Assembly: GCA_963708025.1 (NCBI GenBank)
Contig: CAVPSB010000010.1
Coordinates: 64,001-128,000 of the forward strand
Direction of reading: 5' to 3'
DNA length: 64,000 nt
Source of the DNA: an uncultured Candidatus Rokubacteria bacterium
GTDB lineage: Bacteria > Methylomirabilota > Methylomirabilia > Rokubacteriales > DASRDR01
Of this stretch, positions 5,168-57,951 are shown piece by piece. The position numbers were made by a program, and so were the translations under genes. Positions within the stretch are counted from its first letter, which is position 1; every line of letters begins with the position of its first letter. Below the pieces are notes generated by a model, which ran no database searches, had not been told where the DNA came from, and worked only from the letters and a program-made list of their open reading frames with translations.

Positions 5168-8067
<2,900 letters not shown>

Positions 8068-8364
8068 GTCGGGCCGATAACCTTCGCAGTGGTCATCTCG
8101 GTCGTGACGCGCTCGGCCTACGGCCTCGCGTCCGTCCCGACCTTTTGGCGTCCTCGGTCGTCGCCGGACCTCCCGCAAGGGAGAGACGTCCCGAGGGCCG
8201 CAGGCCCGAAGCGTCGCGACCAGATGGACGTATGCGGCATACGGTTCGGCCCGCCTCCTCCCTGCGTCGATTGGACGGCCTTCGGCCTGTGGGGGCTGCT
8301 CGGTTCTCGGCCCGACCTGCGGCTGTCGGGCATCCCGGATGCCGGCAAGTATCGCTATCGATGA
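8068..8364 (+). repeat. Family B repeat element (carries short ORF 8089-8364)
   Basis: ATCTCGGTCGTGACGCGCTCGGCCTACGGCCTCGCGTCCGTCCCGACCT is identical to the reverse complement at ~46556-46605; GGACGGCCTTCGGCCT hairpin; begins at the korB TAG. Confidence 0.85.
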
Positions 8365-8396
8365 CCGCCTGAAGCCAGAGCCGCCCCGGAGCCGCC

Positions 8397-12560: not shown

Positions 12561-12622
12561 CTCCGGCCCCCCCCTCCCCCCCGGTGGGTGGGGGAGGGGG
12601 GTTGGGGGGGCGGGCGGGAGGT
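12561..12622 (+). repeat. Family A repeat, ending in GGAGGT upstream of lutA
   Basis: CTCCGGCCCCC..TCCCCCCCGGTGGGTGGGGGAGGGGG..GGGCGGGAGGT. Confidence 0.85.
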
Positions 12623-12629
12623 CGCGAAC

Positions 12630-15953: not shown

Positions 15954-16215
15954 GCTCTTCCGGCTCCCCCTCCCCCGGTGGGTCGGGGAGGGGGGCTGAG
16001 GGGGTCCCGGAAATACCCGGGGCCCCGAACTGAGGCGTGTGAGCGTGGGCTCTTCCGGCTCCCTCCCCCGGTGGGTGGGGGAGGGGGCGGGGCGGGAGGA
16101 GGGAGGTCCCGGAAATACCCGGGGCCCCGAACTGAGGCGTGTGAGCTCGTGGGCTCTTCCGGCTCCCCCTCCCCCCCGGTGGGTGGGGGAGGGGGGCGGG
16201 GGGGAGGAGGGAGGT
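15954..16215 (+). repeat. Tandem array of three family A units (~95-105 bp period)
   Basis: GCTCTTCCGGCTCCC..x3; linker GGTCCCGGAAATACCCGGGGCCCCGAACTGAGGCGTGTGAGC occurs twice, identical. Confidence 0.9.
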
Positions 16216-16225
16216 TTCGAAAGTC

Positions 16226-18235: not shown

Positions 18236-18356
18236 CCTCCGGCCCCCCCGGGGGGGTGGGGGACGGGGCGGCCGAACTGAGGGCGTCTGAAACGAACGGC
18301 TTCCTCCGGCCCCCCCCGGTGGGTGGGGGAGGGGGGCTGGGGGGTGGGCGGGAGGT
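18236..18356 (+). repeat. Two tandem family A units
   Basis: TTCCTCCGGCCCCCCC.GG.GGGTGGGGG twice; CCGAA(G)CTGAGGGCG precedes both; ends GGAGGT. Confidence 0.8.
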
Positions 18357-18364
18357 GACGAACG

Positions 18365-21672: not shown

Positions 21673-21677
21673 TCTAG

Positions 21678-21838
21678 ATTCCTCGAAGGGTCGAGTTCGC
21701 GGGGCGAGGCCGAGGAGCGATCAGCGCCCAAAGGCCGAAGGCCGTCCGAAGGACGCAGGGAGTCGCCGACCGCAGGCGTACTCCGAGTACGCCGAGGATC
21801 GGCGACGACCGAGGACGACGCGATGCGAAGCTCATCAT
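21678..21838 (-). repeat. Family B repeat element (short ORF 21838-21674)
   Basis: Near-identical to 42405-42548 and 46423-46520; ends at CTAG 21674. Confidence 0.88.
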
Positions 21839-26637: not shown

Positions 26638-26722
26638 GAGCTTCGGGGGGGTCTCGGAAGACCTCCCCGAAGCCCCCCCACGGATGCCGCGACTGTTGGA
26701 CGGCCTTCGGCCTTTGGGCCGC
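26638..26722 (+). repeat. Composite family C start plus family B hairpin
   Basis: CTTCGGGGGGGTCTCGGAAG.. then GGACGGCCTTCGGCCTTTGGG. Confidence 0.65.
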
Positions 26723-29485: not shown

Positions 29486-29507
29486 GAGCGTGTGCAGGAA
29501 TGGGTCA

Positions 29508-29666
29508 GCCGACTCCCCCCTCGGGTGGGTGGGGGAGGGCTGGGGAGGTGGGCGGGAGGTCCCGAACCGAGGGCGTGCGACGGAATCGAATCGTCCGGCC
29601 CCCCTCCGCCCCGGTGGGTGGGGGAGGGGGCCAAAGGCCGAAGGCCGTGAAGGATCGGGAGGTCCC
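29508..29666 (+). repeat. Two family A units with family B hairpin, between convergent genes
   Basis: CCGACTCCCCC..GGGTGGGTGGGGGAGGG..GGAGGTCCCGAA; CCAAAGGCCGAAGGCCGT. Confidence 0.8.
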
Positions 29667-41627: not shown

Positions 41628-42284
41628 CTAGCGCGAGGTAACGACGCCGACCCGGTGACACGAGGCCCGCACCGGGCAGCGCGAGCAAAGCGGAGACAGG
41701 GGCCGGCAAACGTTCTGGCCGTGAGTGACCAGGAGGTCGTTGAACTCGATCCAGTACCGGGCGGGCAGCTTGGCCCGCAGCGCCATCTCGGTCTGCTCCG
41801 GCGTGCGGGTGCGGACGAAGCCAAGGCGGTTCGAGATCCGGTGGACGTGGGTGTCAACGCAGATCCCGGGCTTCCCGAACCCCACCGTGACGACGAGGTT
41901 GGCGGTCTTCCGGCCGACGCCCTTGAGGGTGAGGAGGGCCTCGATGTCGTCCGGCACCCGTCCGGCGAAGCGGGCCAGGAGATCCCGGCAGATGCCGAGG
42001 ATGGCGCGGGCCTTGGTCCGGTAGAAGCCGACCGGGTAGATCGCCCGCTCGATGGTCCGGGCGTCGAGACCCAGCATGGCCCGCGGCGTGTCGGCCAGTG
42101 CGAAGAGCCGCTCGGACGCCGGGCCGGTCGTCGTGTCCTGCGTGCGGAGCGAGAGCAGGCAGGCCACGAGGACGCGGAACGGATCTCGCTCGGCGGCCGC
42201 GATCTCGGAGACGACCGTGGGCCGCCACGCGCGGACGTGACGGCGGAGCGTCCGAACCACCGGGCCGATCCCCTCCGCCGTCAT
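41628..42284 (-). CDS. nth: Endonuclease III
   Basis: HhH LKGVGRKTAN, VDTHV, CRPLSPLCSRCPVRASC. Confidence 0.95.
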   Translation of the reverse strand: MTAEGIGPVVRTLRRHVRAWRPTVVSEIAAAERDPFRVLVACLLSLRTQDTTTGPASERLFALADTPRAMLGLDARTIERAIYPVGFYRTKARAILGICRDLLARFAGRVPDDIEALLTLKGVGRKTANLVVTVGFGKPGICVDTHVHRISNRLGFVRTRTPEQTEMALRAKLPARYWIEFNDLLVTHGQNVCRPLSPLCSRCPVRASCHRVGVVTSR

Positions 42285-42349
42285 CGGGGCGCGTAGGGCC
42301 GCGCGGAGCCAGCGGGGCGGGGCGGGCCGTCGCGCGATGGCTACCCTAG

Positions 42350-42558
42350 ACCTCGTGAGGCTTCAGAGCCATCGCGGACGAATCGCGCTCGTGGGGCAGG
42401 GCCGAGGAGCGAGCAGCGCCCACAGGCCGAAGGCCGTCCGAAAGACGCAGGGAGTCGCCCACCGCAGGCGTATGCCGCATACGCCGAGGATGGGCGACGA
42501 CCCCAAAGGCCGAAGGCCGTCCGACGGACGACGCGATGCGAAGCTCATCGGCCCTGCC
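42350..42558 (-). repeat. Family B repeat element bounded by CTAG (ORF 42548-42363)
   Basis: CTAG at 42346 and 42559; two AGGCCGAAGGCCGTCC hairpins. Confidence 0.88.
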
Positions 42559-43331
42559 CTAGCTCTTGTTGCGAATCTCGGAGAGTAGCCGCCCCGCGAG
42601 CGGTCGGTGGCGCACCGTCCAGCTCGCCACGTAGGTGGGCTGCCGCTCGTCGATCACCTGCTGCAGCTCCCGGCGCGCCTCGGCGTACCGGCCCTGCTCG
42701 ATGAGGACGCGCCCAAGCTCGATCCGCGCCCGGGTGAAGTGGGGGTCGAGGGCGAGCGCCTTCCGCTGGTAGCTCTCGGCTCTCGCCACGTCCCCGCCCA
42801 TGAGCCCCGGGTCTCCAAGTAGAACGTGCCGGCCAGCGCCAGGCCGCCCACGTTGTTGGGGTCGAGCCGGAGCACGGTGTCGATCTCCTCGCGGAGGGTG
42901 GAGACGAGGAAGGCCGCGCGGAGCTTCCCCTTGGTGATCGCCCAGCGGCCGAGGTTGGCCGCGTACCAGAGGTGGGCCTCGGGGTTCCCCGGCGCCAGCC
43001 CGATCGCGCGTTTGGCGATGTCGCGCCCGCGCTCGTAGCCCGCGAGCTTCTCATCCGGTGTCCGCGCGCGAAGGTCCGCCCACTCGAGGTGGACCCACGC
43101 CAGGAGGAGCAGAGCCTCGAGGGACGGCTCCCGGCTCAGCGCGCTCTCGAGGATCTCTCGGGCCCGATCGATCCGGCTCAGGTCCTCGTGGAAGGTCTGG
43201 AAGAGCGTCCAGGCCTCGGCGACCGGGCCCGTCGCCGCCACCGCGCCGGGGGTCGCGACCGGAGCCAGGAGGAGTACGCCCATCAGCGCGACGACCGCCG
43301 GACCCCGGCGACGGCGGGCGACGACTTCCAT
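42559..43331 (-). CDS. Exported tetratricopeptide-repeat protein (apparent frameshift near 42810)
   Basis: Signal peptide; TPR helices AIGLAPGNPEAHLWY, ALALDPHFTRARIELG; FYLET|PGLMGGD split across frames. Confidence 0.75.
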
Positions 43332-43396
43332 CCGGACGATGCTACCAGCGCCGCCGCGCCTTGACAACTTCGGGGCGGCCTCGCCATGATGGCGTC

Positions 43397-43867
43397 ATGT
43401 CGGGCTTCCTCCACGCGCTCGCAGCGGCCCTGCTGGGCGCCGGCCTCGGCGTCCAGGTGTTCCTCTCCTTCCAGGTCGCGCCGTCCACGTTCCGGCTCCT
43501 CGACCGGCCCCAGGCGGTGCGGCTCATGGAGGGTCTGTTCCCGGGCTACTACCTGTTCGGCATCATGACCACGACCGCGGCCCTCGGACTGATCCTCTGT
43601 CTCGCCCTCGCCGCCCCGCGGGCGCCGCTCCGGTGGGGCGCGCTCGTCCTGGTGACCGTGGTGCTCGCCGGCACGCTCTACGCCGGCCAGATCCTCCTGC
43701 CGGAGGCGCATGCCGCCCGGCTTCGCGCCCAGGCCGCGCCGGCGGGGGACGTGGCGCCCCTCGAGTTCAGCCGCCTCCATCGCCGGTCGGTGGCGGTCAA
43801 CATCGCGCTGTTCGGCGTCGGCCTCCTGGCGCTGGTGCTGCACGCCGCGGCGCGCCCCCGGCCATGA
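43397..43867 (+). CDS. DUF4149 membrane protein
   Basis: Four hydrophobic segments; APSTF..L, LFPGY, FSRLHRRSV.VN. Confidence 0.8.
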   Translation: MSGFLHALAAALLGAGLGVQVFLSFQVAPSTFRLLDRPQAVRLMEGLFPGYYLFGIMTTTAALGLILCLALAAPRAPLRWGALVLVTVVLAGTLYAGQILLPEAHAARLRAQAAPAGDVAPLEFSRLHRRSVAVNIALFGVGLLALVLHAAARPRP

Positions 43868-44286
43868 GCGAGCCGTCCCAACGTCCGCTCGAGTGCCTGG
43901 AACTGGACCACATCGTCCTCCGGGTCCGCGATCAGGCCGCCTCGCAGCGCTTCTACACCGAGGTGCTCGGCCTGACGGTCAACCACGTCAACGAGCCCAT
44001 CAAGTTGATCCACCTCCGCTGCGGCCGCCACATGATCGATCTCCTGCCGCTCGGCCCCGGCGAGCCGCCGCCGCCCACGGTACGGATGGACCACGTCTGC
44101 CTGGCGGTCCGGTGCGACGACCTGGCGGCGGCGGCGAGCTACCTCCGGTCTCATGGGGTCGAACTGGAGGGGGATGTCGTCTCCCGGCGGGGCGCCTTCG
44201 GCCAGGGCCCGTCGCTCTACATCCGCGACCCCGACGGCTACCGGATCGAGCTCAAGCCCCTGGGGCAGAGCGCTGAGGGCATGTGA
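43864..44286 (+). CDS. VOC (glyoxalase) family protein
   Basis: LDHIVLRV, FYTEVLG, DHVCL, SLYIRDPDG..IEL. Confidence 0.9.
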   Translation: MSEPSQRPLECLELDHIVLRVRDQAASQRFYTEVLGLTVNHVNEPIKLIHLRCGRHMIDLLPLGPGEPPPPTVRMDHVCLAVRCDDLAAAASYLRSHGVELEGDVVSRRGAFGQGPSLYIRDPDGYRIELKPLGQSAEGM

Positions 44287-44294
44287 AGGAAAGT

Positions 44295-44365
44295 CCTCCG
44301 ACTCCCCCTCCCCCCGGTGGGTGGGGGAGGGGGTTGGGGGGGGGCGGGAGGTCCCGAGAGGTCCC
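44295..44365 (+). repeat. Family A repeat between convergent genes
   Basis: CTCCGACTCCCCCTCCCCCCGGTGGGTGGGGGAGGGGGTTGG..GGAGGTCCC. Confidence 0.85.
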
Positions 44366-44373
44366 GAAAACCG

Positions 44374-45612
44374 CTACTCGTACCGGAGGGCGTCGATCGG
44401 GTCGAGGCGGGACGCCTTCCGGGCGGGGTAGAAGCCGAAGAAGATCCCCACCGCTCCCGAGAAGACGAAGGCCAGCCCGATCGCCTCGGGCTGGACGTCA
44501 GTCGTCCAGCCGGCGAACGAGGCGATGGCCTGGGAGCCCCCGAGGCCGCAGGCGATCCCGACCACGCCGCCGGCGATCGCGAGGGTCACCGCCTCGATCA
44601 GGAACTGGGCGAGGATGTCGCGGCTGCGGGCCCCGACGGCCATGCGGAGCCCGATCTCGCGCGTCCGCTCGGTCACCGAGACCAGCATGATGTTCATGAT
44701 GCCGATCCCGCCCACCAGGAGCGAGACCGAGGCGATGGCCGCCAGCAGCATCGTCATCACGCGGGCCGCCTCCTCCTGGGCGGCGAACAGCTCGGCCAGC
44801 ACGCGGATCTGGAAGTCGTCGTCCTGGCCGGGCTGGAGGCGGTGTCGCTGGCGCAGGAGGTCGCGGATCTGGTCCTCCGTCTCGCCCATCAGGTCGGCTT
44901 CCTTGACCCGGACGTTGACGGCCTGGACCGAGCGCGGGTTGGACTGGGTCACCCGGCCGAGCACCTTCTTCTTCGCGGTGGAGATCGGGATCAGGATCAC
45001 GTCGTCCTGGTCCTGGCCGAAGGAGGACTGCCCCTTCGCCTCCAGCACGCCGACGACGGTGAAGGGGACCTTCTTGATCCGGATCGTCTGGCCGATCGGG
45101 TCGGTGTCGCCGAAGAGGCTGGTCCACACCGTCTCGCCGAGGACGGCGACCTTGGCCGCCGCGTCCACGTCTTCAGGCCCGAACATCTTGCCGTTCCCCA
45201 CGCCCCACTCGCGGGCGATCAGGTAATCGGGGGTCACTCCCTGGATCACCGTCGACCAGTTGGTGTTGCCGAACACCGTCTGGGCGGCCCCGCGGACCGA
45301 GGGCGCCGCCACCTCCACCGGGGGCACCTCGACGGCGATGGCCCGGGCGTCTTCCTCGGTCAGCGTGAGCTGGGTCCCGAGCCCCCACCGGATGCCTCCG
45401 GAGGTGCTGGCCCCCGACATGACCACGATGGCGTTCGAGCCGAGCGAGCGGATCTGCTCGGAGATGCGCCGCTGGGCGCCGGCGCCGACCGACACCATGG
45501 CGATGACGGCACCGACCCCGATGATGATCCCAAGCATCGTCAGCGCCGTCCGCAGGAGATGCGCCCGAAGCGCGCCGAGAGCCATGCGGACGCTCGCCCC
45601 GATCATCTTCAC
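44374..45612 (-). CDS. MacB-family ABC permease
   Basis: [49 protein letters not shown]. Confidence 0.93.
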
Positions 45613-46361
45613 GCCGTCACCTCCTCGGCCGGGAGGCCCGCCAGCATGTCGTCGGCAACCAGCCGCTCCTGGACCGCGGTGTCAGCCCGCAGCCGCCCAT
45701 CCCGGAAGGTCACGACCCGGCTCGCGTAGCGCGCGATGTCGTCCTCGTGGGTCACCAGGACGACCGTGATGTGCGCCTGGTTCAGCCGCTGGAGGATGGC
45801 CATGATCTCGATGCTGGTCCGCGTGTCCAGGTTGCCCGTCGGCTCGTCGGCCAGCACCAGGCGCGGCTCGTTGACGAGGGCGCGGGCGATGGCGACGCGC
45901 TGCTGCTGGCCGCCCGAGAGCTGGTTCGGGCGGTGGCCGGCCCGGTCCCCGAGGCCGACGTCCTTGAGACGGGCCAGCGCGCGGGGGCGGCGGTCCCGGG
46001 CGGTCGCGCCATCGTAGAGGAGCGGCAGCTCGACGTTCTCGACCGCGCTCATGCGGGGGAGGAGGTTGAACGTCTGGAACACGAAGCCGATCTTCTTGTT
46101 GCGGATCGCCGCCAGCGCGTCGCGCGAGAGCCGGGAGACGTCCTCGCCGTCGAGCGCGTACGTCCCCGCGGTCGGCGTGTCGAGGCAGCCGATCAGGTTC
46201 ATGAAGGTCGATTTGCCGGAGCCGGACGGCCCCATGATCGCCACGAACTCGCCCGGCACGATGTCGAGGCTCACGCCCCGGAGGGCGTGCACGGCATGAT
46301 CCCCCAGCCGATACGTCTTCGCCAGATCCCGAACAGAGATCAGCGGTACCCGGGCGTCCAC
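45609..46361 (-). CDS. MacB/LolD-family ABC ATP-binding protein
   Basis: [26 protein letters not shown]. Confidence 0.93.
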
Positions 46362-46369
46362 AGGGCTAG

Positions 46370-46635
46370 GTTCCTCGAAGCGCCAGAGACATGGCAGATG
46401 AGGAAAGCTCCCGGGGGCGGAGCCGAGGAGCGAGCAGCGCCCACAGGCCGAAGGCCGTCCGAAGGACGCAGGGAGTCGCCGACCGCAGGCGTACTCCTCG
46501 TACGCCGAGGATCGGCGACGACCCCAAAGGCCGAAGGCCGTCCGAACGACGACCATAGGTCGGGACGGACGCGAGGCCGTAGGCCGAGCGCGTCACGACC
46601 GAGATCGACATTGCGACGCTCATCGGCCCCGCCCC
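46370..46635 (-). repeat. Family B repeat element bounded by CTAG (ORF 46623-46366)
   Basis: CTAG at 46366 and 46636; shares blocks with 8068, 21678 and 42350 copies. Confidence 0.9.
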
Positions 46636-48486
46636 CTAGAGCCGGAGGCGGGGAGCCTGGCCGCCCGTACTCCGCTGAGTGGCGCCAGTCTGCCCGGTGA
46701 GGACCTCCTGGCCCGGCTGGAGGTCGCCCTGGAGCAGCTCCGAGTAGGAGCCGTCCGAGGCGCCGGTGACGATGGCCACGGCCTTGGGCTTCCCGTCGGG
46801 CCCCAGGACGAAGACCCGCCCTGGGCTTCCGCTGGCGCCAGCCGCGCCGGCGCTGCCCTCCTGGGCCGCGGCCAGCGCGTCGTACTTCCTCTGCTGCTCG
46901 GGGGTCAGGATGGCCCGGATCTTCTCCCGGGTCTCGGCGCGAATCCGCTTCCGCTGCGCCTCGCGCGCGCGCTCGTCCAGGTCCTGGCCGCGCATCGCCC
47001 CGAAGGCCTGGCGGGACTCTCCCAGGATGGCGTCGAGGCGCCCCTGCTGCTCGGTGGTCAGTGCCAGCTCTTTCGTCAGCGTCTCGCGCAGCTGACCGGC
47101 GGCGCCGGGGCCACCCGCGCCACTGGCCCCACCGCCCACCGCCCGTCCGCCGCGCGCCTCGCCAGACGCCCCACCGGCGGCTCGTCCACCCTCGGCGGGA
47201 GCCGGTGAGGGGCCGGCCGCCGGGCCGGCGCTCTCGCCCGACGGCCGGTAGCGGAGCGCCGCGTTCGGGACCCGGACCACGTCGTCCTTCCGGTCGATCT
47301 GGATGCGGACGTTGGCCGTCATGCCCGGCATCAGCTTCCGCTCCGGGTTCGCCACCGCGATGACGGTCGTGTAGGTGACCACGTTCTGGACGACCTGGGG
47401 CGCCTTGCGGATCTGGACGATCTCCCCGCGGAAGCTCTGGCCGGGGAACGCGTCCACGCTGAAGCTGGCCGGCATGCGCTCCCGCAGGCGTCCGACGTCG
47501 GCCTCGTCCACCGCCGTCTCCACCTGCATGCGGGTGAGGTCCTCGGCGATGGTGAAGAGCGTCGGGGCCTGGAGGCTCGCCGCCACGGTCTGGCCGACGT
47601 CGATGGCGCGGGAGACGACGACGCCGTTGACCGGGGCGCGGATCTCGGTGTGCTCGAGGTCCACGGCCGCCTGCTTCAGGACCGCCTGCTTCTGCTGGAC
47701 CATGGCTTCCGCCGACTTGAGCTGGGCGTGGGCGACGCCCAGGCCCGCCTGGGCGGAGGCGGCCTGGGCCTCGGCGGCCTTGACCTGCGACTCCGTGGCG
47801 ACTTGCTGGGCCTCGGACGAGCGCAGCGCCGCCTCCGCCGCGCTCTGCTGCGAGCGGGACGCCTCGAGCTGGGCCTGGGCGGTCTCGAAGGTCGTCTGGG
47901 CCAGGTCCTTGTCGCTCTGGGAGATCAGCTCCTGGCGCAGGAGGTCCACCCGGCGATCCAGCTCGCGGCGGGCGTTGGCCAGGGTGGCGCTGTCCCGGGC
48001 GACGTTGGCCCGGGCGGTCGCGATGGCCGCCCGGGCGTTCTCGACATCGGCGCGCATCCGGCTGACGTTGGCGTGGGCGGTCACGATGCTGGCCCGGCTG
48101 TTCTCGAGATCGGCCCGGACCTTCTCGACGTTGGCGCGCTGGTTCAGCACCGCCGCCTGGGCGCCCTCCAGGTCGGCGCGGGCGGCGTTCACCTTGGCCT
48201 GGAAGGTCTCGGGGTCGAGCCGGGCGATGAGCTGGCCCTTCTTGACCGTCGAGTTGAAGTCGACCATCAGGTCCTTGATCTGGCCCGAGACCTGGCTGCC
48301 GACCAGCACGGTGGTGACGGCGTTGAGGTTGCCGGTGGCGGAGACGGAGGCGACGACGGTGCCCCGGTCCACCCGGCCGGTCCGGTACTTCGTCGCCTGG
48401 CCGCGGTTCGCGCTGAGCACGTAGCCGGCGAACGCCAGGCCCGCCACCACCAGCGCCAGCAGCACGAGGAGGCCGACCCGCTTCAT
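46636..48486 (-). CDS. Efflux periplasmic adaptor (MacA-like)
   Basis: VGSQVSGQI, IRAPVNGVV..GQTVAASLQAPTLF, PGMTA. Confidence 0.9.
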   Translation of the reverse strand: MKRVGLLVLLALVVAGLAFAGYVLSANRGQATKYRTGRVDRGTVVASVSATGNLNAVTTVLVGSQVSGQIKDLMVDFNSTVKKGQLIARLDPETFQAKVNAARADLEGAQAAVLNQRANVEKVRADLENSRASIVTAHANVSRMRADVENARAAIATARANVARDSATLANARRELDRRVDLLRQELISQSDKDLAQTTFETAQAQLEASRSQQSAAEAALRSSEAQQVATESQVKAAEAQAASAQAGLGVAHAQLKSAEAMVQQKQAVLKQAAVDLEHTEIRAPVNGVVVSRAIDVGQTVAASLQAPTLFTIAEDLTRMQVETAVDEADVGRLRERMPASFSVDAFPGQSFRGEIVQIRKAPQVVQNVVTYTTVIAVANPERKLMPGMTANVRIQIDRKDDVVRVPNAALRYRPSGESAGPAAGPSPAPAEGGRAAGGASGEARGGRAVGGGASGAGGPGAAGQLRETLTKELALTTEQQGRLDAILGESRQAFGAMRGQDLDERAREAQRKRIRAETREKIRAILTPEQQRKYDALAAAQEGSAGAAGASGSPGRVFVLGPDGKPKAVAIVTGASDGSYSELLQGDLQPGQEVLTGQTGATQRSTGGQAPRLRL

Positions 48487-57865: not shown

Positions 57866-57951
57866 GTCCGGGCCGATGACCGTCGCAACGTCCTACCCCG
57901 CCAAAGGCCGAAGGCCGTCCAACGGTCGGGGAGGGAGGTGGGCGGGAGGTG
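57866..57951 (+). repeat. Truncated family B end plus hairpin plus family A tail
   Basis: CGGGCCGATGACCGTCGCAA right after the nrdJ TGA; CCAAAGGCCGAAGGCCGTCC; GGTGGGCGGGAGGT. Confidence 0.7.

Follow-up and report, generated by a model that had tools for sequence, protein, structure and literature searches.

The analysed window is a 64,000-nucleotide stretch of the genome of an uncultured Candidatus Rokubacteria bacterium (C10:64001-128000 of the 8.17-Mb genome G000, which comprises 49 contigs with a guanine-plus-cytosine (GC) content of 71.2% and is rated 99.7% complete). Four copies of a small interspersed repeat, here called family B, have been located in it (c1 to c4, Table 1), each oriented with the neighbouring genes, in agreement with the initial annotation of this DNA. 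CTAG is present on both sides of c3 and c4 and on one side of c2, while c1 is preceded by GTAG. Open reading frames (ORFs) of 91, 54, 61 and 85 amino acids exist in c1, c2, c3 and c4, respectively. In c4 the ATG follows the upstream TAG by 12 nt and in c3 by 10 nt, and the next start is situated 1 nt (c2) or 4 nt (c4) beyond the terminal TAG. The ORF of c3 stops at TGA 42365-42363, 13 nt before the terminal CTAG (42349-42346), and not at the TAG of the latter.

The four copies are members of a family of about 200-300 small hairpin-forming, apparently mobile repeats. A BLASTN search of the whole genome with the four copies as queries yielded 304 merged loci of 25-341 nt, of which 0/304 were hit on both strands, and nhmmer gave 230-242 matches; the recurrence of the repeat, first noticed in the window, is thereby placed far beyond chance. 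A fuzzy-pattern search of the genome identified 327 heads and 251 3' arms, which combine into 189 head-arm pairs. A young subfamily is 90-97% identical between copies lying beside unrelated genes. No matches to Rfam 15 at the gathering score were obtained in the whole window; the best weak match over c4 was a ybhL leader (25 bits against a cut-off of 50), lying mostly upstream of the element, and at E values up to 10 only chance-level matches appeared. No description of a CTAG- or stop-codon-bound repeat like family B was found in a literature search conducted mostly without subscription journals and without supplements.

The family B unit is composed, in this order, of a (C/G)TAG tag, a long imperfect hairpin and an unstructured 3' tail of about 54 nt, often with a terminal CTAG, giving an element length of about 120-290 nt. 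The minimal palindrome comprises 128 nt and is held by a closing stem of about 18 bp, in which the 5' arm GGGCGGGGCCGA.GAGCG, placed directly after TAG, pairs with CGCTC.TCGGCCCCGCCC. Optional hairpins are nested at fixed internal junctions: M3 of 21 nt (GGACGGCCTTCGGCC), M4 of 41 nt and M2 of 54 nt. The bodies of the 189 head-arm pairs fall into length classes of 72, 113, 134, 155, 167, 188, 209 and 230 nt, which, besides the class of 72, fit 113 + 21a + 54b; a canonical length was found in 134/189 copies, and 55/189 are off-size. The earlier statement that terminal inverted repeats are absent has to be amended: an inverted repeat of about 18 bp exists, with a terminal 5' arm and a subterminal 3' arm located about 54 nt before the 3' CTAG. 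[quoted passage not shown] Among the 189 copies, the 5' TAG is preceded by C (76 copies), G (61), T (30) or A (22). CTAG closes 50 of the 71 recognisable tails; CTAG stands at both ends in 25 of the 71, GTAG is followed by CTAG in 7, and the 5' TAG is missing in 16. A GAGGA or AAGGAG motif resides a few bases 5' of the terminal CTAG. In c2 the 5' truncation means that the closing stem cannot form.

Other identities have been considered for the unit and set aside. An intrinsic terminator was rejected on the lack of a T-run after the closing stem in the consensus, and an integron attC site on the scatter of copies between conserved housekeeping genes and the empty orthologous sites. The tail as a hairpin hiding the Shine-Dalgarno (SD) motif was rejected, as the tail has no consensus structure, and the tail as a promoter was dropped because no -10 box follows its TTGAC motif, inspected by eye only.

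Table 1. Coordinates of family B copies, their modules and neighbours, and of other repeats in the window
Feature	Position	Strand	Remarks
c1, older subtype with ATAACC replacing ATGAGC	8064..8317 (3' limit approximate)	+	arms GGTCGGGCCGATAACC and GGTTCTCGGCCCGACC
c1 GTAG tag	TAG 8065-8067	+	stop of ORF 5857..8067
c1 modules		+	M2, one further module type, M3'
c2, 5'-truncated	21674..21838	-	M4, M3', 3' arm, tail; 3' CTAG 21677-21674
c2 downstream gene, presumably nadX (label of the initial annotation)	ATG 21672	-	GAGGA 7 nt before ATG
c3	42346..42562	-	CTAG, 5' arm GGGCAGGGCCGA, M3, M4, M3', 3' arm TCGGCCCTGCCC, tail, CTAG
c3 tags	CTAG 42562-42559 and 42349-42346	-	TAG 42561-42559 is the upstream stop
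c4, full element	46366..46639	-	CTAG, 5' arm, M2, M3, M4, M3', 3' arm, tail, CTAG
c4 neighbours	upstream ORF 46636..48486; ABC ATPase GTG at 46361	-	orthologous sites empty
c4 5' CTAG tag	46636..46639	-	TAG 46638-46636 is the stop of the upstream gene
c4 closing-stem 5' arm GGGGCGGGGCCGATGAGCG	46617..46635	-	includes ATG 46623-46621 of the 85-aa ORF
c4 module M2, optional 54-nt hairpin	46557..46604 (approximate)	-	
c4 module M3 core GGACGGCCTTCGGCC, optional 21-nt hairpin	46529..46543	-	TTCG loop
c4 module M4, apical hairpin GTCGTCGCCGATCC..GGTCGGCGAC	46475..46522	-	covarying pairs
c4 second M3 copy, M3'	46446-46460	-	
c4 closing-stem 3' arm CGCTCCTCGGCTCCGCCCC	46413..46432	-	
c4 unstructured tail	46366..46412	-	SD-like GAGGA 46376-46372; terminal CTAG 46369-46366
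Second repeat family	388-455, 12561-12628, 15956-16011, 16046-16113, 16157-16224		
Second repeat family	18295-18362, 29499-29566, 29591-29662, 37093-37160, 44295-44362		
Solitary 21-nt TTCG-loop hairpin modules outside family B	26689-26718, 35275-35309, 41553-41582, 57898-57932		

According to the initial annotation, all copies preserve the same short ORF. The genome-wide analysis indicates that this ORF is a by-product of GC-rich sequence and is not maintained: its substitutions are neutral, its frame is shifted in many copies and its start is not conserved. The body contains 8% A, and a given frame is therefore open over 85 codons with a probability of 0.34. Among the 189 bodies, sense frame 0 (the one originally read) is open in 170, sense frame 2 in 174 and the antisense frames in 130, 137 and 84, while 86% of random 255-nt windows of the genome possess one open frame or more on a given strand; the openness first seen as remarkable does not exceed chance. 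“Shadow” ORFs of 315-474 residues likewise cross c1 and c4 (6948-8372, +; 45747-46700, +; 45609-46556, -), and their presence in other frames and on the other strand means that an open frame says little at this GC content.

Substitutions were examined in 83 of the 189 copies (length classes of at least 9 copies, at least 85% identity to the class consensus), which provided 443 changes. In frame 0, nonsynonymous changes number 301 (the mutation spectrum observed predicts 297), synonymous ones 138 (predicted 140.6) and nonsense ones 4 (predicted 5.4), and the changes are spread over the three codon positions as 150, 147 and 146. An unfiltered set of 106 copies, whose length classes are of mixed architecture, gave 1186/519/34 against an expected 1184/536/19. 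The GC content of frame 0 is 0.69-0.80 at the third (GC3) and 0.65-0.67 at the second (GC2) codon position, compared with 0.83-0.98 and 0.42-0.62 on the coding strand of called ORFs, a contrast to be taken as a rough guide, since the caller had retained only ORFs with a GC3 above 0.80. A mobile family of small-peptide genes whose product has its own function, suggested by the peptide blocks common to the four window copies, is hardly credible in view of these neutral changes, flat over codon positions, and of the GC2 and GC3 values. Neither purifying selection, nor a codon-position pattern, nor a conserved start, as expected of a small gene family, was found; three of the peptides have no Pfam match at E values up to 1, and the shared peptide blocks are translated hairpin arms.

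The length variants lead to the same result. The claim that all indels keep the frame is correct for the four window copies, which share a frame because their length differences correspond to whole modules of 21 and 54 nt; it does not hold genome-wide, where 49 of the 55 off-size bodies are shifted in frame and 6 differ by a multiple of three. The 21- and 54-nt modules alone explain the shared frame, a circumstance under which the initial annotation had itself declared its claim void, and the 41-nt module breaks the frame.

The same annotation proposed a bridging role for the ORF, in which ribosomes would reinitiate at the ATG 10-12 nt past the stop of the upstream gene, open the hairpins, terminate at the TAG that closes the element and pass to the next gene, as has been suggested for mycobacterial interspersed repetitive units (MIRUs). 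ATG is indeed the head start codon in 163 of 189 heads (ATA in 19), and the 12-nt spacing, with the ATG in frame with the upstream stop, occurs in 61 of the 99 copies that follow a TAG stop. Among 54 copies with a terminal TAG, a downstream start lies within 9 nt in 19, and the ATG frame ends at this TAG in 25, against 18 expected at one in three; however, an earlier stop interrupts it in 24 and it reads past in 5, so an ORF in register with both the flanking stop and the flanking start is not the rule. Intactness of the ORF is not tied to tight junctions (14/25, against 11/29 elsewhere; Fisher p = 0.27), nonsense changes and frameshifting variants are not depleted, and frame 2 is as open as frame 0. 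Moreover, the older subfamilies and 7 of 11 copies from other genera have ATA or AGG in place of ATG, yet they are placed in the same way. Translational bridging is consequently very unlikely.

Family B has a conserved fold. The class consensuses each fold into one closed structure (z = -4.6 to -8.4 against shuffled sequences), both of their strands doing so about equally well, and the tail has a mean z of 0.08 with no consensus structure. Variants of the two arms co-occur, GAGCG with CGCTC in 105 copies, ACCCG with CGGGT in 21, AACCG or AACCT with CGGTT in 17 and GACCG with CGGTC in 3; arm pairing amounts to a mean of 4.20 of 5 positions, compared with 3.38 when the arms are reassigned at random among copies (highest value of 1000 trials, 3.56). 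Covariation was assessed in a 22-row alignment of 19 minimal copies from G000, chosen for differing stems, and one copy each from the related genomes G002, G068 and G022. It contains 38 pairs arranged as a single unbranched hairpin, with double-sided changes in 18 of the 38. Paired cells make up 96.4%, against 82.7% after shuffling (0/500 shuffles reach the observed value) and 33-43% with the partner slid, and the covariation score is 0.332, against 0.101 shuffled and at most 0.066 slid; the rows are related and were picked for stem diversity, so the contrast with shuffling is overstated, whereas the slid controls are unaffected. These compensatory changes support one fold, and family B is a conserved structured nucleic-acid element.

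Strong covariation would also suit a functional cis-acting RNA located after the upstream UAG and acting on the operon transcript, which would have spread by duplication and been kept by selection, for instance as a barrier to 3' exonucleases, a processing site for RNase III or RNase E, or a brake on termination of the upstream ORF. This is a possible, if doubtful, reading. Two U.G pairs, conserved in 21/22 and 18/22 rows, are a weak hint of sense-strand folding, as the other strand would have A.C mismatches at these places. Deviations from the consensus, on the other hand, include 38 G.U against 35 A.C with no strand asymmetry; they fit a palindrome at the DNA level equally well and give no evidence that RNA rather than DNA is the folded form. 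Template-switch correction of quasi-palindromes could produce covariation with no function involved. The UUCG loops were dropped as an argument at the RNA level, as occurrences of the GGCCTTCGGCC motif that lie outside family B run mostly against transcription (168 antisense vs 55).

Related genomes (denoted by G numbers) carry the same family. Its modules were detected by DNA search in 29 of 81 sampled genomes of the order, and the relatives' copies that were compared have the same layout, the G002 tail ending in CAAGGAGTCTAG. A covariance model, R1, matched 62 of the 121 genomes sampled from the class at E <=1e-5, with many of the matches spanning all 128 positions; broken down by family, matches occur in 44/56 (f2), 4/4 (f10), 7/20 (f6) and 3/15 (f8) genomes. 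G055 and G101, which are flagged unpublished and contribute to the counts but no sequence to the comparison, are among the 62, and G101 is also one of the four f10 genomes. Across genomes of 58-72% GC, every copy starts with TAG, then C or T, then GCCG. In G094, G096 and G099 a single copy stands after the same gene, with TAG in frame and differing third codon positions, and G087 shares a locus with one G139 copy. The class-wide spread and the shared loci indicate that the family is old and that single insertions can persist across species. Full-length matches down to 58-63% GC, loci retained with TAG as the upstream stop, and invariant junction motifs all speak for an RNA function as well. 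An uncatalogued class-wide cis-acting RNA with a function tied to the UAG stop at its 5' edge is nonetheless judged unlikely. If it existed, the very stable stem 1-2 nt past the stop would set the efficiency of upstream termination and the survival of the transcript and of downstream translation, the unstructured tail would reload ribosomes, and the burst of copies in this genome would represent a regulatory module copied into operon junctions, not mere selfish DNA.

In a distant family with 58-60% GC, copies L165 and L166 (G139) and L160 (G087) have TAG after the 3' arm (..GCGCGAG TAG ACGTCAAG..). The tail common to two copies in one such genome ends with ..AATGTGCAG and not with CTAG, which means that the 3' end of the element differs between lineages.

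The position of family B relative to genes was determined with a crude GC3-based gene caller of our own (5542 genes, 69% of the genome covered). An upstream same-strand stop lies within 20 nt before the start in 122 of the 189 complete cores; this stop is TAG in 99, and 61 have one single exact spacing. Loci in gaps between co-directional genes number 203 in sense and 37 in antisense orientation (85:15), and 46 loci lie in convergent and 16 in divergent gaps, of which the genome has 742 each. The antisense loci are mostly short fragments (median 75 nt vs 150 nt for sense loci), and their median distance to the upstream stop is 106 nt, compared with 5 nt in the sense group. Only 20 of the 304 loci overlap a called gene by more than half. 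Orientation tracks transcription and not GC skew, since 58 copies follow the gene in opposition to the skew and 13 follow the skew in opposition to the gene; replication-strand bias was rejected as the cause on this cross-table. This dependence on transcription, too, would be expected of an element that works in the transcript, and published repetitive extragenic palindromic (REP) sequences with a similar placement have been proposed to act as RNA, according to an extract of PMC3733652. Stops of about 5530 crudely called genes are TGA in 3553, TAG in 1692 (31%) and TAA in 279, and a family B element borders at least 99 of the 1692 TAG stops.

The 16S rRNA of this organism ends with CCTCC, and ahead of called starts SD-like 4-mers are most frequent at -13 to -9, which indicates that SD pairing is used. 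The GAGGA motif of the tail lies 7 nt before the next start in c2 and 10 nt before the ATPase GTG in c4. A long high-GC3 ORF starts -4 to +30 nt from the terminal TAG in 25 of the 54 copies possessing one.

The earlier description of a non-autonomous, apparently mobile, CTAG-bounded element bridging operon genes is supported by copy number and by empty orthologous sites. No transposase is encoded inside the element. Empty sites were compared for c3 and c4, with relatives that all belong to other genera. The c4 junction measures 338 nt here and 74 nt in G002, and the seven loci compared all agree on the codon at which the upstream gene ends. With the element absent, the stops at the c4 site are TTCTAG in G003, CTCTAG in G005 and TGA in G002, G006, G004 and G011; those at the c3 site are TCCTAG in G003, GTAG in G006 and G005, and TGA in G002 and G001. 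A single CTAG, as anticipated for an empty site, is thus present in G003 (c3 and c4) and G005 (c4), and GTAG or TGA takes its place in the others. Both filled sites consist of TAG, the element, CTAG and then sequence resembling the short spacer of the relatives, which is the layout expected if the element was inserted at a TAG stop and TAG was restored. As regards target duplication, a single (C/G)TAG is found at some empty sites, CTAG at both ends is confined to the 25 of 71 tails already mentioned and the base before TAG varies. Metagenome contigs from four DNA runs (41800-47200) break at the element edges, and none of them joins across an empty site. That orthologous operon junctions in other genera work with no element, and that the young subfamily is nearly uniform across unrelated genes, as after a burst of copying, argues against a conserved RNA function.

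At c3 the downstream gene (window 42284-42346, -) lacks an ATG, GTG or TTG at the place of the start in its G003 orthologue. The orthologue has ATG 3 nt past CTAG, and here the first start in frame comes about 20 codons further on, at 42284; the insertion of c3 may have been accompanied by loss or shift of the downstream start.

Concerning the mechanism of movement only, family B could be a single-stranded DNA element of the IS200/IS605 or REP-RAYT kind, with a tyrosine (HUH) transposase cutting at TAG beside the hairpin. Insertion would then occur 3' of TAG, and the right-hand CTAG would be the element's own end and not a target duplication. The tetranucleotide tag with a hairpin, the strand-specific orientation and the lack of terminal inverted repeats agree with this, and the variable base before the 5' TAG beside a nearly constant 3' CTAG implies that at most TAG is duplicated; GTAG-tagged REPs, too, often provide the TAG stop of flanking ORFs (extract of PMC3733652). 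Such a mechanism is all the same rather improbable. There is no hairpin near the 3' end, and orientation is independent of GC skew. Genome G000 has no match to Y1 (PF01797, RAYT), which was detected in control genomes, and none to TnpB. Y1 genes occur in 21 of the 81 genomes of the order with no correlation to the element, being absent from the DNA-element-rich G001, G003, G005, G058 and G063, and no element sequence was found within 1.5 kb of 8 of these Y1 genes.

The transposase genes identified in G000 are 5 of DDE_Tnp_1 (IS4/IS5-type) and 7 IS110-family matches, and DDE_3 is represented by one broken 22-bit match only; in an assembly of 49 contigs, a partner insertion sequence (IS) could sit in a gap. 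The IS110 matches are located at C14:20670-21140, C13:384521-384946, C15:73035-73460, C31 (three places) and C18:42594-42896, two of them with identical scores.

Taken together, family B is probably a non-coding, non-autonomous interspersed repeat that forms hairpins, comparable in style to REP sequences, ERIC sequences (the intergenic repetitive consensus of enterobacteria) and MITEs. The element would insert at TAG or CTAG and restore TAG on each side. Copies placed exactly on a TAG stop would leave the upstream protein unchanged and for this reason survive, and the sense orientation would be kept because only then does the unstructured GAGGA/AAGGAG tail, and not the very stable stem, precede the next start. 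The shared ORF would follow from the 8% A of the body, recent common descent and module lengths that are multiples of three.

Several observations weigh against this interpretation of an interspersed repeat. Conservation across the class (62/121 genomes) points to selection for function, single copies are held at the same locus in several species, the junction sequences are invariant while the stems vary, and two U.G pairs are conserved. Mobility is deduced from copy number and from empty sites in other genera, and not from filled and empty alleles within a species; the element ends are absent from the 12 transposase loci compared (5 DDE_Tnp_1, 6 of 7 IS110). True terminal inverted repeats are missing, and so, in most tails, is the pair of CTAG ends (present in 25/71, with 16 lacking even the 5' TAG). 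The placement and orientation tables depend on crude GC3-based gene calls covering 69% of the genome. The SD motif is kept no better beside a start (18/25) than elsewhere (22/29), and the pattern used for finding tails itself contains this motif; the SD part is the weakest step of the explanation.

Among known systems, classical MITEs are similar to family B in being small, non-coding and numerous, with a TA-containing palindromic target and a flanking target repeat. IS630 and IS5 elements prefer TA or CTAG as targets. Unlike classical MITEs, family B has no 3' terminal inverted repeat and no parent IS among the transposase genes found.

The comparisons with other repeats that follow are limited to the extracts of the cited articles. 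GTAG-tagged REPs bear an unpaired nTAG beside a GC-rich stem, and the tag is often the TAG stop of the flanking ORF (PMC3733652). Their sites lie 20 bp or less from the 3' ends of genes, for the most part in co-directional and convergent gaps, and they are believed to be transcribed (PMC3733652). Family B has in common with these REPs the tag, its use as a TAG stop and the placement (PMC3733652). A REP is a palindromic unit with an unpaired GTAG (or CGTC) tag; in family B the tag is nTAG. REPs are described as single hairpins of 20-40 bp linked to RAYT, whereas the units of family B span 128-270 nt, are never below 128 nt as palindromes, carry nested hairpins and a tail, and have C or G before TAG. 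In contrast to REPs, there is no RAYT in this genome, and no REPtron-like linkage has been seen in relatives.

ERIC sequences, also called intergenic repeat units (IRU), are imperfect palindromes of about 127 nt in transcribed intergenic regions, with widely varying copy number and internal ORFs (PMC10969869), and at gene 3' ends in Yersinia they change transcript levels (PMC10969869). Family B resembles them in size and in its imperfect-palindrome design (PMC10969869). However, no sequence likeness exists between the two. ERIC sequences are palindromic to both ends and occur in either orientation, whereas family B has a non-palindromic 3' tail, a TAG tag on stops and an orientation bias of 85:15. 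Longer and shorter forms of ERIC arise by internal insertions at fixed sites.

MIRUs are small repeats within operons, running along the gene direction, and the ORF inside them borders on the neighbouring gene (PMC12548453), and all these features are shared with family B (PMC12548453). The anchor is different: MIRUs insert at start codons with a -4 overlap and have the ORF as a point of their design, according to the extract, while family B is anchored at the upstream stop, and its ORF, unlike that of MIRUs, fails every test of maintenance. Rickettsia palindromic elements (RPEs), palindromes of about 150 bp, contain an open frame that permits their location in translated DNA (PMC10969869); a palindromic repeat with an open frame is what they have in common with family B (PMC10969869). 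RPEs are described as lying inside genes and in frame, in contrast to the position of family B after the stop.

Gene callers would report hundreds of spurious “hypothetical proteins” of 40-90 residues from such a repeat in very GC-rich genomes. Neutral substitutions, frameshifting length variants and the openness of other frames provide tests by which spurious ORFs can be dismissed. Family B represents an uncatalogued family, with no Rfam match, strong covariation, presence in roughly half of the genomes sampled from this little-studied class of soil bacteria and single-nucleotide precision on operon TAG stops. It offers a natural test system for the tolerance of stable structures beside a stop and for the movement of TAG-tagged palindromic repeats in the absence of RAYT. 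In Escherichia coli, REP hairpins within about 15 nt of a stop reportedly stall ribosomes and lower upstream expression (Liang and colleagues, 2015); if this were true here, family B insertions would not be neutral.

A second repeat family, presumably the “family A” implied by the earlier naming, is present in the window as 8-10 copies of a hairpin with G/C runs, CCCCCCTCCCCCCGGTGGGTGGGGGAGGGGGG, and in some cases includes the 21-nt GGACGGCCTTCGGCC module as well. Where this module lies outside family B, it is antisense to transcription in 168 cases vs 55. It is also found within the M2 loop in some genome copies (loci 253 and 277). The 21-nt module behaves like a building block common to repeat families.

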